Shown: positions 9,938 to 42,897, numbered from the stretch's first letter. The stretch is 64,000 nt of DNA from Dehalococcoidia bacterium (GCA_965248675.1 CBDFJZ010000008.1:1533256-1597255); one strand, 5' to 3'. Numbers and translations are program-made. The notes: generated from the sequence alone by a model not told the origin.

Positions 9938-11176
9938 CTACGAAACAACGCCCGCGCCCCGCAACTGCTCGAGGCGCTCGGCGCTGAATCCGAGGTCCGA
10001 CTCGAGAATCTCGTCGGAGTGTTCGCCCATCAGCGGCGCGCGCTGGATCGGCACGCGACTGCCGGACATCCGTGGTCCCCAGCCGAGCAGCCTGATCTCG
10101 CCGTGCTCGGGATGATCGAGCGTGTGCACGAACCCGCGCTCATTGAGGTGTTCGTCGCGGAACAGATCGCGCGTGTCGAAGTTCTTGCCGACGGGGACGC
10201 CGGCTTCACCGAGGATCCGCATCACCTCGTGCTTCGTGTGTCGCTGCGTCCACTCCGCCACGATCTCGTAGAGCGCATCGGCGTTGGTGATCCGCGCCTC
10301 GATCGTGTCGAAGCGCGGGTCCGAGGCGAGCTCCGGCTGCCCGATCGCCTGCGCCAGCGCCACCCACATGTGCGGCCGGGAGCACATCACGAACGCGTAG
10401 TCGTTCGGGCCGCGCGGCCCGAACGACTCCTGGGGCTCGGCGGGCCCGCACGGGTAGAGGTTGGTGGTCGCCGTACCGCCGTTGCCGTTGCGCTGTGCCA
10501 CGGCGTTGCCCCAGTCAGCGCCAATCGCCACCTGCGTGCGCATGTAGTAGGTCATCGCCTCCTGCATCGAGATCTCGATGTGTTGGCCCTCGCCGGTGAC
10601 CAACTTCTGGACGTAGGCGGCGGTGATCGCGAGCGCGAGCTGCACCCCCGTGCCGGCATCGCCGACCGTCGGGCCGGGGCGCATCGGTGGTCCGTCCGCA
10701 TCGCCGGTGACCGAGAATGCGCCCGCCGTCGCCTGGGCGACCATGTCGAAGCACTTGTAGTCGGAGTACGGCCCCGAGGTGCCGAACCCCTTCAGTTGCG
10801 CGTAGATGATGCTGGGATTCGCCTGCTTCATCGCGTCGTAGCCGATCTCCAGCCTCTCGACGACGCCCGGCCCGTAGTTCTCCACGAAGACGTCGTAGTG
10901 CGGCGCCATGTCGAGGATGATCTGTCGCCCCTCGGGCTGCTTGAGGTCGAGCACGATGCTCCGCTTGTTGCTGTTCCAGTTGATGAAGTACGGCGCGTTG
11001 CCCTCACCGCGGGCTCCACCGCGCCCTGGATCCCCAAACCCCGGCGGTTCCACCTTCACCACGTCCGCGCCGAGCCAGGCGAGCGCCTGCGTGCACGACG
11101 TCCCCGCCTCGTACTGCGTCATGTCGAGGACGCGCAGACCCTGGAGGGCTGTGTCCTGAGTCGGTTGGCTGGTCAT
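9938..11176 (-). CDS. Family III (CaiB/BaiF) CoA-transferase
   Basis: LQGLRVLDMTQYEAGTSCTQALAWLGADVVKVEPPGFGDPGR...VGDAGTG. The track ORF extends to 11257; Met at 11176 is preferred. Confidence 0.85.
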   Translation of the reverse strand: MTSQPTQDTALQGLRVLDMTQYEAGTSCTQALAWLGADVVKVEPPGFGDPGRGGARGEGNAPYFINWNSNKRSIVLDLKQPEGRQIILDMAPHYDVFVENYGPGVVERLEIGYDAMKQANPSIIYAQLKGFGTSGPYSDYKCFDMVAQATAGAFSVTGDADGPPMRPGPTVGDAGTGVQLALAITAAYVQKLVTGEGQHIEISMQEAMTYYMRTQVAIGADWGNAVAQRNGNGGTATTNLYPCGPAEPQESFGPRGPNDYAFVMCSRPHMWVALAQAIGQPELASDPRFDTIEARITNADALYEIVAEWTQRHTKHEVMRILGEAGVPVGKNFDTRDLFRDEHLNERGFVHTLDHPEHGEIRLLGWGPRMSGSRVPIQRAPLMGEHSDEILESDLGFSAERLEQLRGAGVVS

Positions 11177-11427
11177 CGCGCGTCTCCTCGGAGCGTCATC
11201 GGTTGTCGAGGCGGCGTCGGTGTTCGAGGGGGGGTCAGCGGAGCCGCTGCGGCTCACCTGTCCGCGGTCGAGAAGATCGAGCGCTCGCCCAGCGGGAGCC
11301 TAGCAGCACTCGGCCATGAGCCCCCGAGGTTCGATCCCTGCGCAGCCCGGCCACCAGCCTCGAGCGGTGAAGCGTCTAACCGCGGCGATCGCTCGCGGGC
11401 GCTGCCAGGCGGCCGCCGCGATGCGAG

Positions 11428-13338: not shown

Positions 13339-13512
13339 CCGGCAGCCGAGCCGATGCACGCCAGTCCGGACGGCAGATCGATTCAGCAGACGTGGGCTCC
13401 GGCCCTGACGCAGTTCGGTCCTCGCGTTCGCCTACCGTCGAGGTAGTCTGGCCGCCTCGGCCGTGTGAGCGCCGCCCGAGGCACGCGTCGAACGTCAGAC
13501 CTGGAGGCAGCG

Positions 13513-14307
13513 ATGGCATACGTCCTGTACGAGAAGCGCGGTCACATCGGCGTCATCACGCTGAACCGTCCTGAGCGCATGAACGCCCTCGGGCGCGAGT
13601 TGAGCGCCGATCTGCGCGAGGCGGAGGCGGAGTTCATCAACGACGACGACGCCTGGATCGGCATCTACACCGGCGCCGGCGACCGCGCCTTCTGCGCCGG
13701 ACGCGACCTCAAGGAAGCGGCCGAACAGGACGCCTCGGGCGAGGGGGCGGCTGCCGCGTCGACGACTAGCGCCAGCCCGCCGATCAGCCGCTTCGAGCGG
13801 ATCGCGCCCGATCACGGCAAGCCCACGATCGCCGCCATCAACGGCGCCGCGTACGGCGGCGGGCTCGAGAAGGCGCTCACCTGTGACATCCGCATCGCCG
13901 CCGAGGGGGCGCGGATGGCGCTCGCCGAGGTGAAGGTCGGGCTCTGCCCGCCCGGCGGTTCGTTCAACCTTCCGCGCCTGGTCGGCCTCTCGAACGCGAT
14001 GTGGCTGCTGCTCAGCGGCGAGCCCGTGGACGCCGACGAGGCGCTGCGGATGGGCCTCGTCACCCGCGTAGTGCCTCAGGCCGAGCTCATGCCAACGGCG
14101 CTGGCGATGGCCGAGACGATCGCCGCGAACGCGCCACTCGCCGTCCGGGCGACGCGAAAGCTGGCGCACCTCGGCCTCGAGATGCCGATGGACTACGCAC
14201 GGCGCATGGGCGCGTCGCTGATCGAGTCGGTCTGGACGTCCGAGGACTCGGTCGAGGGCGCGCGGGCGTTCGCCGAGAAGCGCGCGCCGGAGTGGCGGAT
14301 GCGCTGA
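13513..14307 (+). CDS. Enoyl-CoA hydratase/isomerase (crotonase)
   Basis: MAYVLYEKRGHIGVITLNRPERMNAL...FCAGRDLKE...AAINGAAYGGGLE. The track ORF starts at 13465. Confidence 0.85.
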   Translation: MAYVLYEKRGHIGVITLNRPERMNALGRELSADLREAEAEFINDDDAWIGIYTGAGDRAFCAGRDLKEAAEQDASGEGAAAASTTSASPPISRFERIAPDHGKPTIAAINGAAYGGGLEKALTCDIRIAAEGARMALAEVKVGLCPPGGSFNLPRLVGLSNAMWLLLSGEPVDADEALRMGLVTRVVPQAELMPTALAMAETIAANAPLAVRATRKLAHLGLEMPMDYARRMGASLIESVWTSEDSVEGARAFAEKRAPEWRMR

Positions 14308-15022: not shown

Positions 15023-15865
15023 ATGACGACGACCGAACGATCTGGGACCCGCGCGGCGGCACGCACCCTTCCGCCGATCGCCGAGCGCGACCTGACCGAG
15101 GTGCTCTGGGAGCAGACCGACGAAGGCGTGCTGGCGATCACCCTCAACCGCCCTGAACGGCTGAACGCGCTCAGCTTCCGGCTGCTGCGCGAGGTGCAGC
15201 AGCTCATCGATCACGCGGCCGCGACGCCGGAGGTCCGCGTCGTAACGCTGCGCGGCGCCGGCGAGCGGGCGTTCTGCTCGGGCGACGACCTGAAGGGCAT
15301 GAACCCCGAGCCGGGCTACGACAGCTCGGAGACGGTGCACCAGCCACTGCTGCTCTCGATCCGCGAGCTGCCGAATCCCGTCGTCGCGCTCGTCACCGGC
15401 TATGCCCTCGGGCACGGCTGGGAGCTCGCCTCGGCCTGCGACATGCGCCTCGTCGCCGACAACTGCGAGGTCGGCGACCACCGCGTGCAACGCTCGATCG
15501 CGATGAACGGCGGGACCTCCTGGTTCGTGCCGCGACTGGTTGGGCGCGGCCGAGCGCTGGAGCTGTTGATGACGGGCCGCCACCTCAACTCAGAGGAGGC
15601 GGTCGACTGGGGCTGGGCGAACCACGCCTGGCCGCTCGACGAATTCGACGAGCGCTCTGCGGAGTTCGTCTCGATGCTCGCGCAGTTGCCGACGATCGAC
15701 GTCGGTGTCTTCAAGGCAGCGGTCGACTACTCCGCGGAACACAGCCTCCGTGACTCACTCGCACACGAGCTCGAGGTCAGCAAGCGCACTGCGGGCACCG
15801 ATGACGCCGCCGAGGGCCGCGAGTCCTGGTGGCAGAAGCGGGTGCCGGAGTACCACGGGCGCTAG
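15023..15865 (+). CDS. Enoyl-CoA hydratase/isomerase (crotonase), second copy
   Basis: GVLAITLNRPERLNALS...RAFCSGDDLKG...VVALVTGYALGHGWELA. Confidence 0.85.
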   Translation: MTTTERSGTRAAARTLPPIAERDLTEVLWEQTDEGVLAITLNRPERLNALSFRLLREVQQLIDHAAATPEVRVVTLRGAGERAFCSGDDLKGMNPEPGYDSSETVHQPLLLSIRELPNPVVALVTGYALGHGWELASACDMRLVADNCEVGDHRVQRSIAMNGGTSWFVPRLVGRGRALELLMTGRHLNSEEAVDWGWANHAWPLDEFDERSAEFVSMLAQLPTIDVGVFKAAVDYSAEHSLRDSLAHELEVSKRTAGTDDAAEGRESWWQKRVPEYHGR

Positions 15866-15902: not shown

Positions 15903-17183
15903 GTGGCGTGGATTGCGTATGTTATTGAGCAGCAACCGCGGACGGAGGGTCCGCAGGGAGGTGTTCCAGTGGTTGATTTCGCAGACACGCCAGAGATGGC
16001 CACGTTCCGCGACGAAGTCCGAACCTTCGTCAAGCAGCACCATCCGCGGCGGCTCGCCGCCGAGGCGATCTACGACACCGGCTGGGGCAACGACATCGGC
16101 ACGCTCACTCGCGAGCAGCGCGAGGAGCTGATCGCGCCCTGGCGCGCCGCGATGTCGGAGCAGGGCTGGATCTCGCCGGCGCTGCCGAAGGAGTACGGCG
16201 GCGCCGACCTCTCGCCGATCGAGCAGTTCGTCCTCAACGAGGAGTTCGCGAGTCTCGACGCCACCACGGTCGGCATCCGCCAGGACCTCGTCTCCGTCCT
16301 GATGCTCTACGGCACGGACGAGCAGAAGGCCGAGCACCTGCCGGGCCTGCTCTCGGGCAAGGTGCGCTGGGCACAGGGCTACTCGGAGCCGGGCTCCGGC
16401 TCCGATCTCGCCTCGTTGCAGACGCGCGCCACGCGCGACGGCGACGAGTTCGTCGTCAACGGGCAGAAGATCTAGACCTCCGGCGCACACCGTGCGCACT
16501 GGCTGTTCGGGCTCTTCCGCACCGACCCGGAGGCGCCGAAGCATCGCGGGATCTCCTACCTGCTGATGAAGATGGACACCCCCGGCATCACGCCGCGGCC
16601 GATGGCCCAGATGACCGGTGCGGCGGAGTTCAACGAGGTCTTCTTCGAGGACGTGCGCGTCCCCGCCAACAACCTCATCGGCGAACTCAACCGCGGCTGG
16701 TACGTCGGCGCTACGCTGCTCGACTTCGAGCGCTCCAGCATCGGCAACGCGATCGGCACGCAGAGGACCCTGGACGGGCTGCGCACGCTGCTGGTGGACG
16801 AGCAGCGCGCGAACAGCGGCCGTTCGAGGCTCGGCGAGCCCTCGGTGCGCTCCGCCCTCGCCGACCGCTACGTCGACGCCGAGGTCGCCGCGCTCTTCTC
16901 GTACCGCGTGTTCACGATGCACAACCGCGGCCTCGTTCCCAACTACGAGGCGTCGGTCGGCAAGATCTTCAACACGGAGATGATGCAGCGGATCGGCAAG
17001 ACCGCGATGACCGGCCTCGGGCTGTACGGGCAACTCGCCGGGACGGACGACGACTACACACCGATGCGATCGCGCTGGCAGCAGTACTACATGGGTGCGG
17101 TCGCCGCCACGATCGGCGGTGGCACCTCGGAGATCCAGCGCAACGTCATCGCCACCCGCGGCCTCGGATTGCCGAGGGGCTAA
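15903..17183 (+). pseudogene. Acyl-CoA dehydrogenase interrupted by one in-frame TAG (16473..16475)
   Basis: ORFs 15903..16475 and 16566..17183 share one frame with no other stop between them. The junction reads FVVNGQKI[TAG]TSGAH, where ACADs have the conserved Trp (GxKxW[IT][TS]xG). Confidence 0.8.
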
Positions 17184-22937: not shown

Positions 22938-23711
22938 TCAGGAGGTCGTAGCGGAGGTTTCACCCATGTCGCTGAGCACAGGTTCTACGTTGAGCGGGCT
23001 GATCAGGTCCCGGAATGTGTAGCCAGGTCTGCGCAAGAGCCGCCTGGCGGCGAGCGCGTCAGCGTGGGACGTTCGCATTTCCAGGGTCTTGAAATACCAA
23101 TAGACGGCGAACGACCACACGCCGGCTGTCTCGACCCAGAACACGACGGCTCCGAAGCCGCTCAACCAGGCGATCAGCCCGGCGAGCGTCGCGCTCCCGA
23201 TCATCAGCCCGCCGACGATCAGATAGAGCCGCCGGAAGCGGTCTCGGAGTCCCTCATCTGGTACGAGGTCGAGCGTGTCACCAGAACGCACGAGAGCAAC
23301 GTAGGCGAGGCAGATAAAGAACGTGATGGCGGATCCACCGTGCAGCCACGGCAGCGCGTCGGCGATGTCGGTCGAACGGTTGTCCGGCACCAGTGCAACG
23401 ATCACCAACGCGACTCCACCGATGTTGAGCGCCCAGTTCTCGAAGCCGCTGAATCCCTTGTACACGATCAGCAAGGCTGCAATGGCGATGACCGAGCCCA
23501 CGAACACGTCTCTCAACGCCCCGTCGCCCTTGTGGTAGTAAGCGCTGATGGACCCCTGCAGAGACAGATTATGGAACAGTTCGCCTCCCCACCAGAGAGC
23601 CAGCGGGAGAGCGAACGCCAGGACCATCAACCACATCCGGAGAGTGAAGTACGTCCCCCACCCGACGTTCCACAGATTATGTCGACCAAACGAGAATGGG
23701 TTCAAGTTCAT
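22938..23711 (-). CDS. Multi-pass membrane protein of unknown function
   Basis: From Met 23711: MNLNPFSFGRHNLWNVGWGTYFTLRMWLMVLAFALPLALWWGG..., with about 6 hydrophobic segments. The track ORF extends to 24095 through a Pro/Arg-rich stretch, so the start is uncertain. Confidence 0.5.
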   Translation of the reverse strand: MNLNPFSFGRHNLWNVGWGTYFTLRMWLMVLAFALPLALWWGGELFHNLSLQGSISAYYHKGDGALRDVFVGSVIAIAALLIVYKGFSGFENWALNIGGVALVIVALVPDNRSTDIADALPWLHGGSAITFFICLAYVALVRSGDTLDLVPDEGLRDRFRRLYLIVGGLMIGSATLAGLIAWLSGFGAVVFWVETAGVWSFAVYWYFKTLEMRTSHADALAARRLLRRPGYTFRDLISPLNVEPVLSDMGETSATTS

Positions 23712-24103
23712 GCTTGCCAGTCTCCCCGAGGGCAGCTCCTGCTCTCCAACCCGACGAGCGCTGAGCCGTAGCCCCCGGAACCGCTGAGTCTTACGCGAGG
23801 CGTCGTCGCCGGGATGATAACGAATGTAGTCAAGACGGAACGTTCCGATCGCGGGACTGATCCCGAGCGAAGCTCTCCTCGACGCCGTCGATCCGGGCCC
23901 AACGGCTGATCGCGGGATCGGTGTCGGTGATGTCGGCGGGGGTGTCGCCTTCGTGGGCGGTTGCGGCGTGGGGGAGTCGCTCATCGTGGGCCTGGATCGG
24001 CTCCAGGGGTGCGGGCGTGGCCGCCCGTCGATGGCGTTTCGTGAGCCCCCGGCCAACCCGGCCCGTGGCCGCCGATCCGAGGTGACGGCGCCCATGGGAG
24101 GAT

Positions 24104-26527
24104 CTAGCCCGGCGGCAGGTCCCCCGTAACCCCTGCCTCTACGAGGTCGTCGTACTCCTCACGCGTCACGCCCAGCTCCTCGTGGAACACCTCGAAGCTG
24201 TGCTCGCCCATATACGGAGAGTGGCGCACCAGAGGGATCGCGCGGCCGGAGAACCGCCACGGCGCGACCGCCATCGTGTCGAGGCCCGCCTCCGGGTGCT
24301 CCACCTCCGCCATGAACCCGCGGGCGACGAGCTGCGGCAGCGGGTCCTCGAGGACCTCCGCCAGCCGCATCACCGGCGCCGCGCAGCATCCGAGGGCGTT
24401 CAGCGCCCCAGTTGCCTCGCCGGCGTCCTGCTCCGCGCACCAGGCCTCGAGGATCGCGTCCAGCTCGTCCTCATGCCGCTTGCGCGCCGCCGCGCTCGCG
24501 AAACGCTCGTCCGAAACCAGCTCCGGCATGCCGAGGTGACCCGCCAACGCGCGCCACGCCTCCTCGCTCTCGGCTGCCAGGGCGAGCCAGCGGCCGTCGC
24601 GCGCGGCGTAGATGCCGTGCGGCGCGACGGCCGGATGCCGGTTGCCCATCGGCCCGCGGGTGTTTCCGTTCGCCGACCACTCGAGCACCGCGTCCCCGAG
24701 TTGGGCAGTCATCGCCTCGATCATCGAGAGGTCGATGTATTGCCCCTCGCCGCTGCGCGCACGGTGGTGTACTGCCGCGAGGATCGTCGACGCCAGGTAC
24801 ATCCCCCCGACTGGGTCCGGGATCAGGCCGCCAGTGTTCGCCGCCGGCCCGCCCTCGTAGCCGTGCAGCGAGGAGAGACCGGACATCGGCTCGATCGAGC
24901 CCCCGTTCGCCGGGTACTGCGCGTAGGGCCCGGTCGCGCCGTACCCGGAGAGCGAGGCGAAGATCACATCCGGGCGCTGCTCGCGGAGCGTCTCGTAGGT
25001 CACGCCCCAGTGCGCCATCACGTGGGGGCTGAAGCTCTCGGCGAAGACGTCGAAGCGAGGCACCAGCCGCCAGAACAGTTCGGCCCCGCGCGGATCGCTC
25101 ATGTCGAGGGTGATCCCGCGCTTGTTGAGGTTGGTCCCGTTGAACAGCCCCATCACGTTCCAGGCGCGCTGGGTCCGCGCCGGATCGAGCATGTGCTCCG
25201 GCAGCGCCGCGTCGTACCCGCCGGAGTACGTGCGCCACACGTCCGGCCGCCGCCGCGCCTCGATCTGGACGACGTCGGCACCGAGGAGGGCGAGCAGCTC
25301 GGTCCCCAGCGGTCCCGACCACGCCTGCGTGAACGTCAGCACCCGCATCCCCGCCAGCGGCGCCTCGGCGGGAGCGGGCTTCGCCCCCGTCACCAGCGGC
25401 GCGGCCGCCGCGCGCGCGGGCGCCGGCTCACCCTCGCCATCCCCAAGGCCGGGCGCCGGCTGGTGCAGCCGCCACGGTGTCGCGCTCAGCGTCGCCGGGG
25501 CGCCCGGCATCCGCGCCGAGCGCCCATCGACCACCGTCTCCGCGAAGTACCCGCGCGCCTGGAGGTGCGGGTTCTCGAGGAGGTCGGCCGTGTCCTGCAA
25601 CACGCCGGACACGGAGCGGACCGTCGACAGCGCCTCGAACAGCTCCCAGCGCGGCATCTCCGCGACGCGTTCCGCGATCCGAGGCCGGATCGCGGTCAGG
25701 TGCTCGCGGCGTCGCACGGGATCGTCAAACCGGTCGTCGGCCAGCTCCGACAGGCCGAGCACGTGCATCGCGTCGGTCCAGAACAGACCCTGCCCGAACC
25801 CCGCCAGGATCGGGCCGTCGAGCGCCTCGAGGAACCCCGGGCCGTCGCGGTGGTGTACGTGTACCCGCGCCGTGTAGCCCTCGGGCCCCTCGTAGATCAC
25901 CGCCAGCGACCACGGCACCGAGCTGACGATCGCCGCCTCGAGCTCGCTCGCGTCCACGAGCGCGCCCTCGCCCGAGGTCGTGCGACGCACGACCGCGCCG
26001 GCGGCGCCGACGAAGGCGGCCACCCCGGCGATGTAGTCGAACTGGCGCGCTGGAAGCTGGAGTGGCGGCTCGCCCTCGAAGCCGCAGATGTCGGCCCAGC
26101 CGCTCAGCGCCGAGTGGGTGAGGCTATTCGCTGGCGCGCCGGCCAGCGGGCCGTCGAGGCCGAACGGCGTCACCGAGACGTGCACCGCGTCCGCCCGTTT
26201 CGCCTCGAGCGCGTAGCGCAGCGAGGGCGGCCATGGGACGGCCGTCGTCACGATCACGTCGGCCTCGGCAACGTGGCGCTCCAGCTCCGACGCGTCTCCT
26301 GGTGCGATCAACGATCGCTTGTTCGCGTTGACGTACGCGTGCACCAGCGAGCGATCGGGCCCCGGCACGTCGTCGAGGAACGGCGGTTCCGAGCGCAACG
26401 GATGGCCCTCGGGCGGTTCGAGCAGCAGCACGTCGGCCCCGTAGTCGCCGAACAGCCGCGCGCAGTAGGCGCCCGACAGGCGGTCCGAGAGATCCAGGAC
26501 GCGCAGGTCCTCGAAGGCGCCGGACAT
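24104..26527 (-). CDS. Tandem-fused double family III CoA-transferase (807 aa)
   Basis: Two CaiB/BaiF modules in one ORF: MSGAFEDLRVLDLSDRLSGAYCARLFGDYGADVLLLEPPEG... and ...LAGMRVLTFTQAWSGPLGTELLALLGADVVQIEARRRPDVWR...IPDPVGG. Start Met 26527 lies 12 nt after the upstream stop. The track ORF 24104..26890 overlaps the carboxylase. Confidence 0.8.
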   Translation of the reverse strand: MSGAFEDLRVLDLSDRLSGAYCARLFGDYGADVLLLEPPEGHPLRSEPPFLDDVPGPDRSLVHAYVNANKRSLIAPGDASELERHVAEADVIVTTAVPWPPSLRYALEAKRADAVHVSVTPFGLDGPLAGAPANSLTHSALSGWADICGFEGEPPLQLPARQFDYIAGVAAFVGAAGAVVRRTTSGEGALVDASELEAAIVSSVPWSLAVIYEGPEGYTARVHVHHRDGPGFLEALDGPILAGFGQGLFWTDAMHVLGLSELADDRFDDPVRRREHLTAIRPRIAERVAEMPRWELFEALSTVRSVSGVLQDTADLLENPHLQARGYFAETVVDGRSARMPGAPATLSATPWRLHQPAPGLGDGEGEPAPARAAAAPLVTGAKPAPAEAPLAGMRVLTFTQAWSGPLGTELLALLGADVVQIEARRRPDVWRTYSGGYDAALPEHMLDPARTQRAWNVMGLFNGTNLNKRGITLDMSDPRGAELFWRLVPRFDVFAESFSPHVMAHWGVTYETLREQRPDVIFASLSGYGATGPYAQYPANGGSIEPMSGLSSLHGYEGGPAANTGGLIPDPVGGMYLASTILAAVHHRARSGEGQYIDLSMIEAMTAQLGDAVLEWSANGNTRGPMGNRHPAVAPHGIYAARDGRWLALAAESEEAWRALAGHLGMPELVSDERFASAAARKRHEDELDAILEAWCAEQDAGEATGALNALGCCAAPVMRLAEVLEDPLPQLVARGFMAEVEHPEAGLDTMAVAPWRFSGRAIPLVRHSPYMGEHSFEVFHEELGVTREEYDDLVEAGVTGDLPPG

Positions 26528-26538
26528 CACCAGATTCC

Positions 26539-29500
26539 CTACCAGGTCGGCACGCTGGGCCGGCGGCCACGCCGGATCGGCTCGGACTGTGCCGCCAGCA
26601 GGCCCTGGGTGATCCAGTGCCGCGTCTCCACCGGATCGATGACGGCGTCGATCTTGAACGTCGATGCGGCGTTGAGCGCGCCGCCTCGCTCGTAGGCCTG
26701 CTCGACCAGCCGTTCGTACTCCGCGGCGCGCTCGCCGATGTCCTCGATCGCCGCGAGCTGATCGCGGTTCGACAGGCGCACCGCCGCCTCGAGGTTCATC
26801 CCGCCAAACTCCGCCGTCGGCCAGGCGACGGTGAACGAGGGCGCCCGCTCGTTCCCGAACAGGATCGTGTTCGAGCCGAGGCCGTAGCACTTGCGCAACA
26901 CCACACTGAACCGTGGCGTCTTCACGTTCCCCAGCGTCACGATCAGGTTGCTCGTGCGACGCACCAGCGCCGTCTTCTCCGCCTCAGGCCCGATCATCAT
27001 CCCCGGCGTGTCCACGAGCGTGAGCAGCGGAATGTTCCAGGAATCGCAGATTTTGGCGAAACGCGCCGCTTTGTCGGATCCGAAACTTTCGATCGACCCA
27101 CCCAGGTGCTCGTTGTTGTTCGCGATCACCCCGACCGGGCGGCCCTCGACGCGGACCAGCGCGGTCACCATGCCGTGCCCGTACTCCGGGCGCAGCTCCA
27201 GCACTGACCCGCTGTCCGCCATCAGCTCGATCACGCTCCGCACGTCGTACGCGCTGAGCCGGTTCTCCGGGATCGCGTGGCGCAACAACCGCTGGTCGGC
27301 GCATTCCCAACTTTTCACGGATCCCTGGAAGTACGACAGATACCGCTTCGCCACCCCAATCGCCTCAGCTTCGCTCTTGACGAGGATGTCGACCGTGCCC
27401 GCCGGCACCTGCTCCGACATCGGGCCGATCTCCTCGGGCAGGTAGACGCCCATCCCGCCGCCCTCGATCACCGCCGGCCCGCCCATGCCGATGTTGGCGT
27501 CCTCGGTCGCGATGATCACGTCGCAGATCCCGAGGATCGCGGCGTTGCCGGCGAAGCAGCGGCCGGCCGTCACGCCGATGATCGGCACCGTCCCGCTCAG
27601 GCGCGCCATCAGCTCCCAGGTGCGGAACACCATCCCCGGCATCCCGTCGGTGTCACCGGAGCGGCCGCCCGCGCCCTCGGCGATGAAGATCAGCGGCAGC
27701 GCGAACTCCCCGGCGACCTCCATCATCCGGTCGGTCTTCGCGTGGCCTCGGATGCCCTGCGTGCCGGCGAAGACAGTGTCGTCGTACGAGATCACCGCCG
27801 TCCGCGCCCGCTTCTCGTCGAACAGGGTGCCGTTCACCGCACCGATCCCGGAGACCAGCCCGTCGGCCGGCGTCTTGCGCACCAGCTCCTCCAGCGTGCT
27901 GCGCCGGCTCTGCCCGGCGATCACGAGGTCGCCGTACTCGATCCACGTCCCCTCATCCACGAGGTCGGCGAGGTTCTCTCGCACCGTCCGCCGGTTCTTC
28001 GCGTGGCGCCGTTCGACCGCCTCGGGCCGGTTCTCGTCGAGCAGGAACGGCCGCCGGTCGAGCACCGCCTGCAGATCGGGGCGGATGTAATCGATCGCCG
28101 CTGGGGCCTCGCCGGCCTCCGCGGGGCCGCCGACGTCCGCCTCCTCGACGAAGGCCAGCGGGTGATCCTCGTAGACCGTATCGCCGACCGCGACGGCGAG
28201 CCGGCGCACGATGCCGCCCAGCGGCGAGCGCACGAGGTGCTCCATCTTCAGCGCGTCCATGACGCAGACGACCTGCCCCTCGCGGACCGTGTCGCCCTCG
28301 GCGACGAGGATCTCGCGGATCGTGCCCTGGATCGGTGCCCGCAGCGGCGCGGTGTTCGGCGGTCCGATTGGCTCCGGCTTGTCGCCGCGGGCGCCCATCG
28401 TCACCACGTCGGCGGCGTCGCCGGAGCGGTAGAAGTCCAGCCCCGCCAGCGGGTCGAGCGGTCCTTCGGGAGCGCGCGCCGGCTCCGAGGCTGTCGCGGT
28501 CAGCAGCTCCGCCGCGTGCACGTCGATCCAGCGCGTGTCGATCCGCCCCGCCGCGAAGTCGTCGTGCGCGATCACCGCGCGTAGGAACTCTAGGTTAGTC
28601 TCGGCGCCGGCGATGCGGAACGCCCCGAGCGCCAACGCCAGGCGCCTGACGGCGCTCCCGGAGTCCGCCGACGTCGAATGCGCGATCACCTTCGCCAGCA
28701 GCGAGTCGAACGCGGGGCTCGAGGCGTAGCCGGCGTATCCGTTCGTGTCGACGCGCGTGCCCGGCCCCGAGGGCGGCAGAAACACCGTCAGCGTCCCACC
28801 GGCCGGGCGCACGCCGCCGTCTGCCTCCATCCGTTCGAGATTCACGCGCGCCTGGATCGCGTACCCATGCGGCGCCGGCGTCTCATCTAGCCCAAGCGCG
28901 CCCAGCGTCTCGCTTCCGGCGATGCGCAGCTGCGCCTGGACGAGGTCGACGCCGGTCACCTCCTCGGTGACCGTGTGTTCGACCTGCAGCCGCGCGTTCG
29001 CCTCGATGAAGACGCAGTCGCCGCCGTCGAGGTCAACGAGGAACTCGAACGTGCCGAGGCCCTCGTAGCCGGCCGCTTCGGCGAGCCGCACGGCATACGC
29101 GGTGATCGCCTCGCGCACCTCGGCGCTCAGCCACGGACTGGGCGCGATCTCGATCAGCTTCTGGTGACGCCGTTGCACGCTGCACTCGCGCTCGCCAAGG
29201 TGACGCACCGCCCTCGCGCCGTCGGCGATGATCTGTACCTCCACGTGCCGTGCCCGCTCGATCAGCCGCTCCGCGTAGACGCTGTCGTTACCGAACGCGT
29301 TCAGCGCCTCGGACTGGCAGCGCGCCAGCGCCTCCTCGATCGCCGCCGCGTCGGTCACCACGCGCATGCCGCGCCCGCCGCCACCGCCGACCGCCTTGAG
29401 GATCATCGCGGCGCCGTCGCCCAGCCCCGCGAAGAAGGTACGTGCCTCGTCGAGGCCGACCGCGCCATCGCTCCCCGGCAGCACCGGCACGCCGTGCTCC

Positions 29501-29886
29501 GCGGCGAACGCCCGCGCCCGCGCCTTGTCCCCGAACAGCGCGAGGGCCTCAACGGACGGCCCGACGAAGGCGATCCCGGTATCCGCGCACTGTTGGGCGA
29601 AGCCTGGATTCTCGGCCAGAAAGCCGTACCCGGGGTGGATCGCGTCGCAGCCGGTTTCGCGCGCCGCGAGCAGAATCTGCTCCGCATCGAGGTAGGCGCG
29701 CGGGCCCGAGCCCGCCAGCGGGCGTGCTTCTGGTGTGGCCTCGACATGGAGCGACGTCGCGTCGTCCTCGGAGAAGACGGCGACGGCGGGGATCTCCAGC
29801 TCAGCGGCGGCCCGTGCAATGCGGACCGCGATCTCGCCTCGATTCGCGATCAGCAGCTTACCCAGCGCCACGGAGCCCCCCGACAT
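26539..29886 (-). CDS. Single-chain biotin-dependent acyl-CoA carboxylase (BC - BCCP - CT)
   Basis: 1115 aa. The N-terminus is biotin carboxylase (LLIANRGEIAVRIARAA...ATP-grasp). The biotinyl domain is EGQVVCVMDALKMEH. The C-terminal ~500 aa is a carboxyltransferase (ISYDDTVFAGTQGIRGHAKTDR...IFIAEGAGGR...GGSIESFGSDKAARF). Confidence 0.9.
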   Translation of the reverse strand: MSGGSVALGKLLIANRGEIAVRIARAAAELEIPAVAVFSEDDATSLHVEATPEARPLAGSGPRAYLDAEQILLAARETGCDAIHPGYGFLAENPGFAQQCADTGIAFVGPSVEALALFGDKARARAFAAEHGVPVLPGSDGAVGLDEARTFFAGLGDGAAMILKAVGGGGGRGMRVVTDAAAIEEALARCQSEALNAFGNDSVYAERLIERARHVEVQIIADGARAVRHLGERECSVQRRHQKLIEIAPSPWLSAEVREAITAYAVRLAEAAGYEGLGTFEFLVDLDGGDCVFIEANARLQVEHTVTEEVTGVDLVQAQLRIAGSETLGALGLDETPAPHGYAIQARVNLERMEADGGVRPAGGTLTVFLPPSGPGTRVDTNGYAGYASSPAFDSLLAKVIAHSTSADSGSAVRRLALALGAFRIAGAETNLEFLRAVIAHDDFAAGRIDTRWIDVHAAELLTATASEPARAPEGPLDPLAGLDFYRSGDAADVVTMGARGDKPEPIGPPNTAPLRAPIQGTIREILVAEGDTVREGQVVCVMDALKMEHLVRSPLGGIVRRLAVAVGDTVYEDHPLAFVEEADVGGPAEAGEAPAAIDYIRPDLQAVLDRRPFLLDENRPEAVERRHAKNRRTVRENLADLVDEGTWIEYGDLVIAGQSRRSTLEELVRKTPADGLVSGIGAVNGTLFDEKRARTAVISYDDTVFAGTQGIRGHAKTDRMMEVAGEFALPLIFIAEGAGGRSGDTDGMPGMVFRTWELMARLSGTVPIIGVTAGRCFAGNAAILGICDVIIATEDANIGMGGPAVIEGGGMGVYLPEEIGPMSEQVPAGTVDILVKSEAEAIGVAKRYLSYFQGSVKSWECADQRLLRHAIPENRLSAYDVRSVIELMADSGSVLELRPEYGHGMVTALVRVEGRPVGVIANNNEHLGGSIESFGSDKAARFAKICDSWNIPLLTLVDTPGMMIGPEAEKTALVRRTSNLIVTLGNVKTPRFSVVLRKCYGLGSNTILFGNERAPSFTVAWPTAEFGGMNLEAAVRLSNRDQLAAIEDIGERAAEYERLVEQAYERGGALNAASTFKIDAVIDPVETRHWITQGLLAAQSEPIRRGRRPSVPTW

Positions 29887-30070
29887 CGAGTCTGACTTCC
29901 CGGAAGCATAGCCTCCTCACGGACCAGTCCGTCATCGCCCAACGACCGTCCGCGGGACCGTTGAGCGGGCGAATGCGAGCCACGTAGCGGGTTGGGTGCG
30001 CGAGCCGAGCACGCGGTTCTGGAGGCAGTCCCACCGGAGGAACACTACCGTGATATAAGGACGGCACCCG

Positions 30071-31522: not shown

Positions 31523-31533
31523 GAGGGCCGGCC

Positions 31534-33916: not shown

Positions 33917-36322
33917 ATGGATCTGTTCAGCGGCGTGCGGGTGCTCGAGGTCTCCGAGACGCCGGCGGCTGCGTTCGTCGGCAAGCTGTTTTCGCGCTGG
34001 GGCGCCGAGGTCACAGCGCTGCGCGACCCGTCAACCAACCTCGCCGACTCCGGTTCGTGCGTCTCCGAGGAAGCGCTCTCGGCGTTCCTCGACGGTGGCA
34101 AGCGCCGATCCGAACTCCCCGAGGACAGCGGCGACCGCACCACGACTGTCGCGCGACTGGCGGCGGCCAGCGACATGGTCGTCACCGACGCAGCCCCCGA
34201 CGTCTTCGAGGCGTGGAGGCCGGCGATCGAGGCGACCGATTCGCCTCCGCGGGTGCTGACGAGCATCACTCCGTTCGGGCTGAGCGGCCCTTACCGCGAC
34301 TGGCAGGCGACTCCCACGACGCTCCTCGCGCTCGGCGGCTACTCCTACCTCATGGGCGAGGCCGACGGTCCTCCGCTCACACTGCCCGGGCTGTATCCCG
34401 ACTACCAGGCGGCCCTGATCGCCTACAGCGCGACGACCGCGTCATTCCTCGAGGCGTCGGACGAGATGGAGGTCCTCGAGCTCAGCATCTTCGAGGCGCT
34501 CGTGTCGCTGCATCAGTACTCGACTGTGCAGTGGACCTACAGCCGGCAGGTGCGGCAGAGGAACGGCAACCGCTGGTCGGGGATCCACCCCAATTGTCTG
34601 TTGCCCGTGAAGGACGGCTGGCTCGAGCTCTGCATCGTCGGGAACTTCTGGGAGGCGTTCACGCTGATGATCGGTCGCCCCGAACTCCAGCAGGACGACC
34701 GCTTCTCGACGCCGATCGCGCGTGTCGAGCACGCCGACGAGCTGGACGAGATCGTCGTCCCGATCCTCGCTGAGCGCACGAAGCGTGAGTGGCTGGTCGC
34801 AGGCCAGGAGACCTTCCGCGTCCCGGTCGGGCACGCCGCCACCCTCGAGGAGGTGCTGGACGATCCTCAGCTCGGCGTGCGCGAGTACTGGTCCGGAGTC
34901 CACCAGCCGGACGGGCGCGCGGTGCGGATCGGCCGCTCCCCGTTCCGTATCGACGGCGCACTTCCCGAGGAGCAACCCGTCGTGTCCGAGGGCGCCTGGG
35001 CGCTCGAGGCGCCCTCGGACGCCCCGCGCGTCTCGCCGCCACCGCGCGGATCGAGGCAACCGCCACTCGCGACGCCTCCGCCGGGCGGCCCCCTGAACGG
35101 CATCCGCGTCCTCGATCTGACCCGCGTCTGGGCCGGCCCGCTCGCCGGCCGCATCCTCGCCGACCTCGGCGCCGAGGTGATCAAGGTCGAGGCACCGATG
35201 GGGCGCGGTCCTGCACGCATCCCGCCCGGCTCCGGTCGCCGCATGCTCGCGTCGGGCACGAACGAACGTCCGTGGAATCAGCAAAGCTCGTTCAACAAGC
35301 TGAACCGCAACCGCTACGGCCTCGCGATCGATCTGAAGAGCGAGCAGGGCCGCGATCTCTTCTTGCGGCTCGCAGCGGAGACCGACGTCGTCCTCGAAAA
35401 CTTCAGCGCGCGGGCGATGGACCGCCTCAATCTCGGCTACGACCGCCTGCGCCAGGTCAGCCCATCCCTGATCTACGCCGCGATGCCCGGCTACGGCCGC
35501 AGCGGGCCCTACCGTGACTACGTCGCCTACGGCCCGAGCATCGAGCCGATGACCGGCCTCACGATGCTGATGGGCTACGGCGACGAGGTGCCCCGCGTGA
35601 CCTCGAAGGCGATTCCGGACGCGATCGCCGGCACCCAGGGCGCCGCCGCGGTGTTGACCGCCCTCCAGCACCGATCGCGCACGGGCGAAGGCTGTTTCGT
35701 CGACCTCTCGCAGCACGAGGCGGCGGTCGAGCTGCTGGGCGAGTACTTCGCCGAGTTCGAGCTCAGCGGCGCCGTGCCTCCCGTGGTCGGGAACGGACAC
35801 GTGCGCTGGGCGCCGCACGGCGTCTATCCGTGCAGCACCGAGGACGAGTGGATCGCCGTCACTGTCCGGGACGACCCGGAATGGCGGGCGCTCATCGATC
35901 TGGCGGATCGCGGCTGGGACGAGGACTCGCGGTTCGCCACGCTCGATGCTCGGCGCGAGCACCTCGAGGAGCTCGATCGCGAGATCGCCGGCTGGACGGC
36001 ACGGCTCGATCGCGCGGAGCTGATGCGCCAGCTCCAATCGCGGGCGATCCCGGCCGGCGCGGTCCTCTCCGCGCCGCAGATGCTCGAGGACGGCCATCTC
36101 CAAGAGCGCGACTTCTTCGTCACGCTGGAGCAGCCGGACGTAGGCGCGATCGACTACCCGGGCACGCCGCTGCGCTCGCGCCGCCATCCTCGGGCGGGCT
36201 GGCGTCCAGCGCCGACGCTGGGTCAGGACAACGCCGCCGTCCTCGACTTGATTGGCGTTGCCGCCACGGAGCTGAACGAACTGATGGAGCGCGGCGTGAT
36301 CGCCGACCGCCCACCGGCGTGA
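33917..36322 (+). CDS. Tandem-fused double family III CoA-transferase (801 aa)
   Basis: A degenerate first module (MDLFSGVRVLEVSETPAAAFVGKLFSRWGAEVTAL...) plus a canonical second module (LNGIRVLDLTRVWAGPLAGRILADLGAEVIKVEAPMGRGPAR...IPDAIAG). Confidence 0.8.
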   Translation: MDLFSGVRVLEVSETPAAAFVGKLFSRWGAEVTALRDPSTNLADSGSCVSEEALSAFLDGGKRRSELPEDSGDRTTTVARLAAASDMVVTDAAPDVFEAWRPAIEATDSPPRVLTSITPFGLSGPYRDWQATPTTLLALGGYSYLMGEADGPPLTLPGLYPDYQAALIAYSATTASFLEASDEMEVLELSIFEALVSLHQYSTVQWTYSRQVRQRNGNRWSGIHPNCLLPVKDGWLELCIVGNFWEAFTLMIGRPELQQDDRFSTPIARVEHADELDEIVVPILAERTKREWLVAGQETFRVPVGHAATLEEVLDDPQLGVREYWSGVHQPDGRAVRIGRSPFRIDGALPEEQPVVSEGAWALEAPSDAPRVSPPPRGSRQPPLATPPPGGPLNGIRVLDLTRVWAGPLAGRILADLGAEVIKVEAPMGRGPARIPPGSGRRMLASGTNERPWNQQSSFNKLNRNRYGLAIDLKSEQGRDLFLRLAAETDVVLENFSARAMDRLNLGYDRLRQVSPSLIYAAMPGYGRSGPYRDYVAYGPSIEPMTGLTMLMGYGDEVPRVTSKAIPDAIAGTQGAAAVLTALQHRSRTGEGCFVDLSQHEAAVELLGEYFAEFELSGAVPPVVGNGHVRWAPHGVYPCSTEDEWIAVTVRDDPEWRALIDLADRGWDEDSRFATLDARREHLEELDREIAGWTARLDRAELMRQLQSRAIPAGAVLSAPQMLEDGHLQERDFFVTLEQPDVGAIDYPGTPLRSRRHPRAGWRPAPTLGQDNAAVLDLIGVAATELNELMERGVIADRPPA

Positions 36323-36357
36323 AGGCGAGCGCAGCAGCGCTAGACAGGAGATCCGCC

Positions 36358-37614
36358 ATGCCGGAGCCACTCGAGGGCATCAAAGTCGTGGAGCTGGCGC
36401 GCGCGCTGCAGGGCCCCGTCGCCGGACAGTACCTCGCCGATATGGGCGCCGACGTCATCAAGGTCGAACCCGCGCTCGGCGACGCGAACCGCCGTGTGCG
36501 CAGCCCCTTCATCGATCCGACCGAAGGCGGATTCGGTACCCAGTTCGTCAGCGCCAATCGAGGCAAGCGCTCGCTCTGGCTCGACCTCCGCCGCGAGCAG
36601 TCGATCGATATCGTCCGCCAGCTCGTCGACGGTACCGACGTCTTCCTGAGCAACTATCTGGAGCCGTCCCTGCTCGCGATGAAGCTCGGCTACGACGACC
36701 TGCGCGAGCGCAACCCGGACCTCGTCTACGCGTTGGTCAACGGCTACGGCCCGGTCGGCCCGGACGCGGCGAAGCGCATGCTCGATGGCTCCGCCGCCGC
36801 TCGCGGAGGCCTCTACAACGTCACCGGCCCAAGCGACGGCGGCCCGATGATTCCTGGTTCCACGATCGCCGATACCGCCGGCGCGATGCAGCTCGCGCTC
36901 GGGATCACGACCGCCCTCACGGCGCGGGCGCTACACGGCGGCAGTCAACGCGTCGATACCTCCGGCCTCGGCGCGCAGCTCTGGCTGCAGAAGTGGGAGC
37001 TCGACACCGTCTCACTGACCGGCGATCGCCTCTCCCGCCAGGGCCCGCATAGCGCCAACATCCCGGGCACCTACGGCCTCTACGAGACCTCGGACGGTGC
37101 GATCATGATCGCTTACATCGCCAACGAGGCGGACTGGATCGAGTTCTGCCGATTCGCCGGCCTCGAGGAGCTGATCGCAGATGAGCGGTTCGACACCGGT
37201 CTGAAGCGGGCAGGCTGGGCGCCCGATGGCGGAAAGAGCGAGACTTCGTACGAGATCCGCCCCTACCTCGAGCGCGCCTTCAAGGCGAAGAGCACCGCAG
37301 AGTGGACCGAGTTCCTCGGTGGGCTGACGAAGGTCGTCTGGGACGTCGTCCAGGACTACGAGCAGGTGCTTGGCGATCCCCAGGCGATCGCCAACGGCTA
37401 CTTCGTCGAGCAGGACATCCCCACCGTCGGCCAACGCCGCCTCGTCGGAAACACCGTGCACATCAATGGCGACACCGGACGGGCGAAGCCGCGGCCACCC
37501 GCCCTCGGTGAGCACAACGAGGAGATCCTCGCCTCGCTCGGCTACGACGCCGCCGCGATCGAGGAGATCACCGCCGCCGCCCGCGCAGCTATGAAGCAGC
37601 GGCTCGGCGCTTGA
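36358..37614 (+). CDS. Family III CoA-transferase
   Basis: AGGAG RBS then ATG 36358: MPEPLEGIKVVELARALQGPVAGQYLADMGADVIKVEPALGDANRR...IADTAGA. The track ORF 35830..37614 has a spurious 5' extension. Confidence 0.85.
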   Translation: MPEPLEGIKVVELARALQGPVAGQYLADMGADVIKVEPALGDANRRVRSPFIDPTEGGFGTQFVSANRGKRSLWLDLRREQSIDIVRQLVDGTDVFLSNYLEPSLLAMKLGYDDLRERNPDLVYALVNGYGPVGPDAAKRMLDGSAAARGGLYNVTGPSDGGPMIPGSTIADTAGAMQLALGITTALTARALHGGSQRVDTSGLGAQLWLQKWELDTVSLTGDRLSRQGPHSANIPGTYGLYETSDGAIMIAYIANEADWIEFCRFAGLEELIADERFDTGLKRAGWAPDGGKSETSYEIRPYLERAFKAKSTAEWTEFLGGLTKVVWDVVQDYEQVLGDPQAIANGYFVEQDIPTVGQRRLVGNTVHINGDTGRAKPRPPALGEHNEEILASLGYDAAAIEEITAAARAAMKQRLGA

Positions 37615-39311: not shown

Positions 39312-40872
39312 TCACGGTCGATAGCTCGGGCCGGCGTTTGGGCCGAGTTGGGTCTTGATCACGTTCTGCGCCATGTCCGCGAACTCGCAGATGATCGCGC
39401 GCGTGTCTCGAGGATCGATCAAGTCGAGGCCGCTCGCCTCGGCGGTCCGGAACGGTGAGGACAGCGCCTGGAACTCCGCCTCCAGCTCGAGCCGTTTCGC
39501 CTCCGGATCGGGCGCCGCCTCGATCACGCGGCGGAACGCCGCGGACGTTCCGCCCTCGATGTGCATTGAGCCCCAATGTCCCGAGAGCCACGCGTAGCGC
39601 CGGTACAGGTGTGGCCCCGGCCGGTACTGCAGGCTGCCCGCCAGTCCGTACGACTGGCGGCAGATCACCGAGATCCACGGCATCTTGCTCTGCGCGATCG
39701 CATACACGAGGCGCGCCCCGGCCCGCTCGATCCCCACCTTTTCCGACTCGAGCCCGACCATGAACCCCGGATCGTCCATCAGCACCACCATCGGCAAGTG
39801 GAACGTGTCGCAGAGCTGCACGAGGCGGCTCGACTTCTCCGCCGCCGCCACGTCCATCGAGCCGCCTCGGTGGTTCGGGTTGTTGAGCATCACCCCCACC
39901 GGGTACCCGCTCGCCCGCGCCAGTCCGATGATTCTCGACGTCCCGTACTCCGGCGACACCTCGAAGAACGACCCCTCGTCGAACACCCCCCCTCGAGGAT
40001 CACGCGCGGGTTGTACGGCTGCCGCTTGTCCCGAGGGATCAGCGACAACAGCCGTTCGTCGCGACGCGCCGGATCGTCCGACTGATCGCCCTGCGGCGGC
40101 ATCTCCCAGACGTTGTCCGGCATGTAGCTCAGGAACTGCTTCACCTGGGCGATTGCGTCCGCCTCGTCCTCGGCGGCGTTGTCGACACCCCGCTGATCTG
40201 AGCGTGGATCTGGGCACCCCCGAGGTCGTCCTTGTCGATGTCGTAGCCGAGCGCCGCCTTCACCACCGGCGGTCCGCCGGGGAACACCTGTCCGGCCCCC
40301 TTCGCGATCACGCTGAAATGGCTGAGCGGGGGAATCGGCGCCAGCCCGCCGGCGGCCGACCCCAGCACGGCCGTCGCTACCGGCGCGATGTTCAAGATCG
40401 CGCAGATCGACTCGAACTGGGCGCCGTCGGGGATGTAGGTGCGACCGATCTCCGCGAATTCAGTCACGCTGCCACCCGCGCCATCGAGCAGGTTCACCGT
40501 CGGCAGCCGCAGCTCCATGGGGCCGGGATGGCCGTGCCCCATATCGACGCCAGCGCTATGGGCGCCGGCCGAGCCGCCCCGGATCGTGAAGTCCTGCCCG
40601 GCCACGTAGATGCGGCGTCCGCCGACCTTCGCGATCCCTCGCACCCCCGCCGACGGCTTCACGTCGAGGAGCGCTCCGTCGTCGTCGTACGTGGCGCTGC
40701 CCCGCAGCTTGCCTATTTGCTCGAACGAACCGGCGTCGACCAGCAGTTCGATCCGCTCGCGGATGTTGAGCTTTCCTTGCCGCCGCTGACGTTCGAGGCC
40801 TTCCGGTCCCCCCATTTGCTCGGCGAACGCGTACCGGCGATTCAGCTCATCGACGTCGGGCTGCCAGGTCAT
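39312..40872 (-). pseudogene. Acyl-CoA carboxylase carboxyltransferase (PccB/AccD-like), two frameshifts
   Basis: Three frame segments. (1) 40872->~40190: ...VAGQDFTIRGGSAG...GGAQIHAQISGV. (2) VDNAAEDEADAIAQVKQFLSYMPDNVWE...PRVILEG. (3) VFDEGSFFEVSPEYG...NNPNHRGGSMD...MDDPGFMVG. Shifts at about 40184..40191 and in the C7 run 39986..39992. Confidence 0.8.
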
Positions 40873-41052
40873 TGCGGACTCCTCGGATCGTACGGACGCG
40901 CTGTGATCGGATCGTCACGGCAGTCTAGTCGGAGCACGGGCGTGCGGTAGATCGTTGTCCCGCGGCGCAGAAGGTACGCGACCGGACGCAGCCGTCGATT
41001 ACGCGTGTGCCACGCTCCCGCCGTTGTCGCTCACCACACACGGGGAAAAACA

Positions 41053-42768: not shown

Positions 42769-42897
42769 CCCTCGGGAAAGCCTCCACTGCCTGTGAGCGG
42801 TGGAGGCTCGGGCGAACGTAGATTGGAAGCGGCTCGCGTCCTCGGCGGAGGTTGACGGCGCGACTGCTGCCCGACGGTTGCGGAAGGACCGCCGACG

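Follow-up and report, generated by a model that had tools for sequence, protein, structure and literature searches.

The window analysed here, a 64,000-nucleotide stretch of a metagenome-assembled genome (MAG) of a Dehalococcoidia bacterium (GCA_965248675.1, CBDFJZ010000008.1:1533256-1597255), carries on its minus strand two adjacent genes, one for an acyl-CoA carboxylase of 1115 aa and, directly downstream of it, one for a two-module CoA-transferase of 807 aa. The carboxylase is of the LCC (long-chain acyl-CoA carboxylase) family, with biotin carboxylase (BC), biotinyl carrier (BCCP) and carboxyltransferase (CT) domains in a single chain, and the transferase is a fused, BbsEF-like member of family III. 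We found that the two genes stay together in related genomes through changes of order and orientation, and matching subclades of the two proteins suggest joint duplication and divergence of the two genes. The features of the pair are listed below, in window coordinates.

26539..29886, minus strand: LCC-family single-chain acyl-CoA carboxylase (BC-BCCP-CT), 1115 aa, from Pfam and the match to 4rcn_A
28522..29862, minus strand: biotin carboxylase (ATP-grasp) part, residues 9–455, from Pfam Biotin_carb_N, CPSase_L_D2 and Biotin_carb_C
28153..28341, minus strand: biotinyl carrier domain, residues 516–578, from Pfam Biotin_lipoyl
26575..28008, minus strand: carboxyltransferase domain, residues 627–1104, LCC clade by sequence ranking and of predicted alpha-carboxylating type, from Pfam Carboxyl_trans (2–483 of 493)
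26528..26538, minus strand: 11-nt spacer from the carboxylase stop to the transferase ATG (TAG GGAATCTGGTG ATG)
24104..26527, minus strand: two-module, fused BbsEF-like family III CoA-transferase, 807 aa, from two CoA_transf_3 stretches, an AlphaFold2 (AF2) model and the fold match
25427..26518, minus strand: N-terminal module of the transferase, residues 4–367, probably a non-catalytic partner, from the match to 9fn0_A and a variable Asp position
24125..25357, minus strand: C-terminal catalytic module, residues 391–801, from the alignment of Asp571 with D178 of 9fn0_B

The open reading frame (ORF) of the carboxylase is intact, and its Pfam domains follow in the order Biotin_carb_N, CPSase_L_D2, Biotin_carb_C, Biotin_lipoyl and a full Carboxyl_trans. 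The protein aligns end to end with 4rcn_A, the long-chain acyl-CoA carboxylase of M. avium paratuberculosis (MapLCC; E 3e-294). The structure of this family was reportedly solved by Tran and colleagues in 2015. An earlier note on this DNA had described BC, a biotinyl domain and a complete CT in one 1115-aa ORF and had likened the layout to the mycobacterial single-chain LCC type; the coordinates and Pfam content are correct, and the likeness is upheld by the full-length 4RCN match and by the CT ranking described below. The BC part carries the motifs GGGGGRGMR, RHVEVQ, ERECSVQRRHQK and EANARLQVEH, all of them intact, which we take to be biotin carboxylase motifs as known from the E. coli enzyme. 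The biotin lysine is Lys547 in MDALKMEH (codon AAG, 28246..28248). The same note had read the ALKME form of the biotin motif as unusual; the motif is present, but A-L-K-M-E is the most frequent form across 120 homologues, and we dropped it as a special feature.

When the CT domain alone was compared with the PDB, 4RCN ranked first (572 bits, 54% identity over 495 columns) and 5fif, the CT of a Deinococcus single-chain carboxylase, ranked second (526 bits). Transcarboxylase 12S and the beta subunit of propionyl-CoA carboxylase (PCC) followed at about 200 bits, and the beta subunits of geranyl-CoA carboxylase and methylcrotonyl-CoA carboxylase (GCC and MCC) scored 117–124 bits. This ranking answers the question, raised earlier, of where the CT stands among the acetyl-CoA carboxylase (ACC), PCC, MCC, GCC and LCC classes: as judged by sequence it is a member of the LCC clade and, after LCC, comes closest to the alpha-carboxylating enzymes (PCC/12S), not to the gamma-carboxylating ones (MCC/GCC). 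Against NCBIfam, the carboxylase reached no equivalog cut-off. LCC is a homo-hexamer that takes C2–C16 acyl-CoAs in vitro; its Km is much lower for palmitoyl-CoA, and the enzyme has been tied only loosely to carbon and nitrogen utilisation (PMC6491548).

Each half of the transferase is a complete family III module (Pfam CoA_transf_3), and the two halves match different chains of BbsEF, the succinyl-CoA:(R)-benzylsuccinate CoA-transferase. The best PDB match of the C-module is the Asp-bearing chain (9fn0_B or D; 194 bits for 9fn0_B), while the N-module best matches the Asp-less subunit 9fn0_A, which has a Tyr at the catalytic position (128 bits, versus 70 bits for BbsEF chain B). Asp571 of the C-module (codon 24815..24817) aligns with D178 of 9fn0_B, for which PDB entry 9FOL gives a D178-CoA adduct in its title, and with the conserved Asp of YfdE and of 4ED9. 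It is unchanged in 57 of 57 tandem transferases and in 113 of 113 homologues. The equivalent position of the N-module is D164 here, is Asp in 4 of the 25 clade members, varies among D, E, G, S and A, and is not conserved in the 113 homologues; for this reason Asp164 was dropped as a second active site. Because the N-half matches the Asp-less chain and the C-half the Asp-bearing chain, and only the Asp of the C-half is invariant, the transferase has the look of a BbsEF-like pseudo-heterodimer in which the two halves are covalently joined and a single predicted catalytic centre lies in the C-module.

The AF2 model of the transferase, built from 113 sequences (predicted local distance difference test score, pLDDT, 93.5; predicted TM-score, pTM, 0.95), packs the two modules as one unit. 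The poorly conserved inter-module linker (residues 379–386; pLDDT <50) is its sole disordered part. The best fold match is the Asp-bearing chain of BbsEF (TM 0.93), and human SUGCT, formyl-CoA transferases and YfdE are also matched. No NCBIfam equivalog cut-off was reached, all matches being far below; the nearest models are the succinate-glutarate, succinyl-CoA:mesaconate and formyl-CoA transferases. The nearest characterised enzymes (BbsEF, SUGCT, formyl-CoA:oxalate and succinyl-CoA:mesaconate transferases) all use dicarboxylates or succinyl-CoA.

The carboxylase stop codon TAG lies at 26541..26539 and the transferase ATG at 26527, immediately downstream, with 11 nt between them, so the closeness of the two genes was described correctly in the earlier note. 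This arrangement recurs in 12 Dehalococcoidia genomes, where a carboxylase of 76–79% identity is directly followed by a tandem transferase of 61–71% identity and the flanks differ. In the carboxylase tree, the carboxylase gene comes first, with the transferase adjoining it, in 13 of 13 members of clade A, and a fourteenth, more distant member (L019) has the transferase first and an ECH gene between the two. In the paralogous clade B (50–56% identity), which spans at least 7 genera and 2 families, the tandem transferase lies directly upstream of the carboxylase. A clade B pair is also found in the window's own genome, its members 6 kb apart. A third arrangement, with divergent or nearby genes, occurs at three loci (L027, L028 and L073). 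Sampling from the transferase side gave a similar picture: among 60 relatives, 16 of the 24 strong matches adjoin or lie near a carboxylase or carboxylase remnants, and a metagenome scan seeded with the transferase alignment returned 80 loci, about 21 of which have a carboxylase within 150 nt (17 with the transferase first, 3 with the carboxylase first and 1 divergent). Over the 38 measured pairs the transferase-first order is the more frequent (22/38, versus 16/38). The gap is 3–39 nt (median 7) at the 16 carboxylase-first loci and has a median of about 20 nt at the 22 transferase-first loci; in both orders it is mostly below 50 nt.

A tree of 116 tandem transferases places all 42 carboxylase-adjacent members in one 72-member clade (support 99), whereas none of the 44 transferases outside this clade adjoins a carboxylase. 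Transferase subclades A, B and C pair with carboxylase clades A, B and C, a match suggesting that duplication and divergence took in both genes together. The adjacency was kept through several flips, with at least three changes of order or orientation, and two paralogous pairs are found inside single genomes (e.g., G033). Since the association occurs in one clade only, and fewer than 1% of genes are tandem transferases, chance adjacency is not credible. Hence, the link to a double CoA-transferase that the earlier note had drawn from this window is real and no local accident: the transferase neighbour is retained across the genomes of relatives, and this is so even though the CT falls into the known LCC class.

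The association also has bounds. Some subclades inside the 72-member clade have lost the carboxylase link, and three transferase homologues of about 50% identity, all on megabase contigs, have no carboxylase nearby. An LCC of Pseudohaliea (48% identity) has an acyl-CoA dehydrogenase (ACAD) and crotonases as neighbours instead of a transferase. A close LCC of any kind is present in 23 of 61 relatives, and the module seems peculiar to this family of Dehalococcoidia and a small number of relatives.

Some copies of the pair show irregular reading frames. At L040 (7860-7960; G007:C1, about 2343600) the tandem transferase and the carboxylase share a frame split by a single TGA, with open frames of 831 and 1155 codons. 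The lineage uses selenocysteine elsewhere, and the arrangement may be coincidence. Intact tandem transferases stand beside multi-frame carboxylase remnants at L015/L062 (G007:C1:12911-33753) and L059 (G014:C10:90000-109000); either the module is decaying in these copies or the long-read assembly is in error.

The window has a G+C content of about 69%, and the source MAG (G000) comprises 4.05 Mb in 8 contigs at 89% completeness. The nearest public relatives of the carboxylase are MAGs of uncultured Dehalococcoidia (Chloroflexota). We found 114 family III CoA-transferase ORFs in the genome, 30 of them tandem, together with seven single-chain LCC-type carboxylase paralogues, two of which form a tandem duplicate, more than 12 stand-alone CT genes, three acyl-CoA mutase genes, none of them near the locus, and a separate AccC-like biotin carboxylase at C5:213210-214538. 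Examples of the LCC-type paralogues are as follows.

C8:743464-746829
C8:723448-726837
C8:1029405-1032836
C8:418451-425215
C5:397836-401214

The divergence of seven LCC paralogues within one genome argues for diversified substrates, as far as sequence can tell. The expansions of CoA-transferases and luciferase-like monooxygenases match the description of the SAR202 clade, which has paralogue expansions of a like kind, with top matches to DddD among them, and has been proposed as an oxidiser of recalcitrant marine dissolved organic matter (PMC5395668). The host is one of a group of uncultured, marine-type Dehalococcoidia.

Around the pair, the window contains the following further features.

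29887..30070, no strand assigned: divergent intergenic region between the carboxylase and a DUF1800-DUF1501-NHL operon, presumed promoter region, from the gene map
22938..23711, minus strand: membrane protein gene downstream of the transferase, probably outside the module, no family match
9938..11257: CoA-transferase
33917..36322: tandem CoA-transferase
36322..37614: CoA-transferase
13465..14307 and 15023..15865: two crotonases
15903..17183, plus strand: ACAD
39312..40872, minus strand: stand-alone CT, frameshifted

The intergenic region upstream of the carboxylase (29887..30070) is without a sigma-70 consensus match. Promoter and terminator consensus scans near the pair returned nothing beyond shuffled expectation, and Rfam gave no riboswitch or other element there. 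On the minus strand at 29907-29923, a strong Shine-Dalgarno-like GAGGAGG stands 7 nt ahead of an ATG at 29909. This ATG and the carboxylase start at 29886 lie in different frames, so that it could point to a short ORF upstream or to an indel in the assembly. The DUF1800-DUF1501-NHL-repeat operon (30071-33737, plus strand) stays beside the pair in the closest relatives (L001, L002, L019 and L028). In the window the operon lies at the head of the pair in divergent orientation; in L001, L002 and L019 it lies at the tail in convergent orientation. Downstream of the transferase lies a 385-aa ORF (22938-24095, minus strand), the first 128 codons of which are rich in Pro, Arg and Ser and look non-coding. 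The real gene is probably that of a 257-aa multi-pass membrane protein starting at 23711, with a lower G+C content of 61%. It has no Pfam or NCBIfam match, and we dropped the 385-aa ORF as a part of the module because it is not beside the pair in relatives.

The inventory of further CoA-ester genes within 30 kb (three more CoA-transferases, two crotonases, an ACAD and a stand-alone CT) had also been given correctly. The suggestion that they form one route with the pair found no support, as none of these genes is kept beside the pair in relatives. They are weak evidence of a pathway because the genome holds so many family III CoA-transferase ORFs, and they reflect a genome-wide expansion. Three of the surrounding genes have disturbed frames. 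The ACAD (15903-17183) has a single in-frame TAG (..GQKI*TSGA..) where ACADs carry Trp, either a recent inactivation or a base-call error. The stand-alone CT (39312-40872) consists of two overlapping ORFs, 40141..40872 and 39312..40217, which indicates a frameshift. An SBP_bac_5 solute-binding protein gene (40999-42800, plus strand), upstream of two ABC permease genes, is open only in its middle (41705-42361) and is probably frameshifted.

We tallied Pfam families over 116 neighbour ORFs from 24 pair loci and considered the 25 commonest families. The most frequent neighbours are components of ABC type-5 and MFS transport, further CoA-transferases and luciferase-like monooxygenases. Neither a mutase nor an epimerase is among these 25 families, nor is an acyl-CoA ligase, and ECH_1 was found only twice. 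The pair behaves as an autonomous two-gene unit, often near uptake genes.

We found no paper in the searchable literature on an LCC paired with such a CoA-transferase. Like MapLCC (4RCN), the carboxylase has BC, BCCP and CT in one chain of about 1100 aa, and the two align from end to end; the window protein differs in being one of seven paralogues in a Chloroflexota genome and in forming a conserved pair with a CoA-transferase. The transferase has in BbsEF (PDB 9FN0, 9FOL, 9FUN) its best sequence and fold match and shares its division into an Asp-less and an Asp-bearing half. However, it is one chain of 807 aa whereas BbsEF consists of two polypeptides, the identity is just 24–32%, and no bbs beta-oxidation genes lie near it, its partner being a carboxylase and its other neighbours unrelated. 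The transferase would thus work like BbsEF but, because it is a single chain without the bbs gene context, is not a BbsEF-type member. Among two-domain family III CoA-transferases, DddD was the sole characterised member as of 2018, and PtmU4 was characterised in the same paper (PMC6006322). Both are like the window transferase in architecture, with two tandem family III modules and about 800 aa in total; unlike theirs, its context in the window has no ddd or ptm genes, and a lyase or sulfur-transfer activity is not indicated.

In other systems, too, a CoA-transferase is genetically coupled to an enzyme acting on the carboxylation state of a CoA ester. These are formyl-CoA transferase/oxalyl-CoA decarboxylase (Frc–Oxc), with a transferase of family III, and the E. 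coli succinate-to-propionate operon ScpA-ScpB-ScpC, in both of which CoA is recycled between the product and the incoming acid. The likeness to the window pair is one of functional analogy only. Unlike these systems, which decarboxylate, the pair has an ATP-dependent biotin carboxylase, and for this reason it should run in the carboxylating direction.

The family membership of both proteins, their intact catalytic residues, the tight spacing and the conservation and co-divergence of the pair are direct observations, and they form the ground for a proposal on its function. We propose, with about even confidence, that the pair is a self-contained, co-inherited unit in which the transferase turns an imported organic acid into its CoA thioester, which the carboxylase afterwards carboxylates at the alpha-carbon. 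The order of the steps, the CoA donor and the substrate are what we infer here. In this scheme the transferase would move CoA from a dicarboxylyl-CoA donor, which may be succinyl-CoA or the pathway's own product, onto the free imported acid, and no ATP would be spent; the N-module would serve as a structural, CoA-binding partner, and the C-module would supply the nucleophile Asp571. The LCC-family carboxylase would use ATP and bicarbonate to form carboxybiotin on Lys547, and the carboxyl group would be moved to the alpha-carbon of the acyl-CoA, giving a substituted malonyl-CoA (a 2-carboxyacyl-CoA). Succinyl-CoA or a pathway product typically serves family III transferases in the activation of free acids, as in BbsEF, SUGCT and Frc. 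We place the transfer first because LCC needs an acyl-CoA, because a ligase is not among the frequent neighbours, and because of this typical use of family III enzymes. The ligase-poor neighbourhood and the uptake genes fit with activation by CoA transfer.

Several findings weigh against this proposal. Twenty-one members of the transferase clade with adequate flanks have no adjoining carboxylase (for 16 there is none within 6.5 kb, and 5 lie 0.3–6.5 kb from one); ten further members had too little flanking sequence to be judged. Many LCC paralogues are likewise unlinked, among them four of the other six in this genome (LCC3, LCC5, LCC6 and LCC7), which have no CoA-transferase of the paired clade within about 9 kb. 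Beside the pair, the 116 neighbour ORFs of the 24 loci include no conserved third enzyme. The order of the genes gives no direction to the pathway. Family membership also does not narrow the substrate because MapLCC takes C2–C16 acyl-CoAs in vitro (PMC6491548).

The reverse sequence of steps, in which carboxylation comes first and the transferase acts on the 2-carboxyacyl-CoA product, had been suggested in the earlier note from this window. The opposite order is at least as likely; the transferase gene comes first at 22 of the 38 measured loci. We consider carboxylation first to be rather unlikely. It could take either of two forms, namely transfer of CoA to an unrelated acceptor, which would free a substituted malonate, or an intramolecular shift of CoA between the carboxyl groups, of the kind carried out by mesaconyl-CoA C1:C4 transferase. 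In its favour, the carboxylase would yield a dicarboxylate mono-thioester, dicarboxylates are used by all the active module's close characterised relatives, the carboxylase gene comes first in the window, and Chloroflexota have intramolecular family III transferases (8apq, 7xkg). However, the carboxylase-first order is the rarer one (16 versus 22 loci), and the intramolecular Mct enzymes rank with the more remote matches, 2-methylfumaryl-CoA isomerase scoring 87 bits against a cut-off of 725. Carboxylation first would also leave the source of the carboxylase's acyl-CoA unexplained, an acyl-CoA ligase being absent from the frequent neighbours. A further scheme, which we regard as unlikely to a somewhat greater degree, is a closed cycle of the two enzymes in which CoA is catalytic and the carboxylated product donates it to the next free acid. 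The net reaction would turn acid, bicarbonate and ATP into a substituted malonic acid, an ATP-driven mirror of the formyl-CoA transferase/oxalyl-CoA decarboxylase cycle. The autonomous movement of the two genes, unaccompanied by any conserved third enzyme, and the habit of the transferase's relatives of swapping CoA between a dicarboxylyl-CoA and an acid both speak for such a cycle, but there is no known physiological use for free substituted malonates in the organism, and ubiquitous donors such as succinyl-CoA make a closed cycle needless. This reading is purely inferential.

Two explanations would do without any joint function in acid carboxylation. That the two enzymes have no functional link, their adjacency stemming from the density of CoA-transferase genes and from the shared ancestry of close relatives, is very unlikely in our view. 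It could draw on the 114 family III ORFs in 4.05 Mb and on the many clade members and LCC paralogues that are unlinked; furthermore, in 300 evenly drawn Chloroflexota genomes we found no transferase orthologue outside the window's genome, in a search of limited sensitivity that scored 3 candidates per genome. Yet tandem transferases account for only about 30 of roughly 3,700 genes (the gene number is estimated), the adjacency occurs in one clade only (42 inside, versus 0 of 44 outside), and it has outlasted three or more changes in order or orientation and is found in two paralogous pairs in single genomes (e.g., G033). Least probable of all, and in our judgement highly unlikely, is that the carboxylase is a housekeeping acetyl- or propionyl-CoA carboxylase supplying malonyl-CoA or methylmalonyl-CoA, with the transferase beside it by accident. 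The alpha-carboxylating type of the CT, nearest to PCC/12S after LCC, would suit such a role, and LCC carboxylates short acyl-CoAs too, in vitro (PMC6491548). But the genome has the seven LCC paralogues, the separate AccC-like biotin carboxylase and more than 12 stand-alone CT genes, and most genomes of this family lack the orthologue (a close LCC in 23 of 61 relatives), which is unexpected for an essential enzyme.

Both kinds of enzyme were already known, as the LCC family and as two-domain, BbsEF-like family III CoA-transferases; the new element is their linkage, and the pair does not reveal a new mechanism. A conserved and co-diverging pair provides a defined partner for each enzyme, which turns the question of the role of LCC into a two-protein assay. 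The pair offers a concrete way to test ideas on two enzyme families of which little is understood, in an uncultured lineage of ecological importance. The seven LCC paralogues, more than 12 CTs and 114 CoA-transferase ORFs suggest that carboxylation of CoA esters is a major, little-studied metabolic route. If the closed cycle were true, the pair would be an ATP-driven carboxylase of free organic acids; to our knowledge, ATP-driven carboxylation of free organic acids by CoA cycling has not been described for biotin enzymes. In that case, SAR202-type bacteria could remodel poorly degradable carboxylic acids of marine dissolved organic matter.

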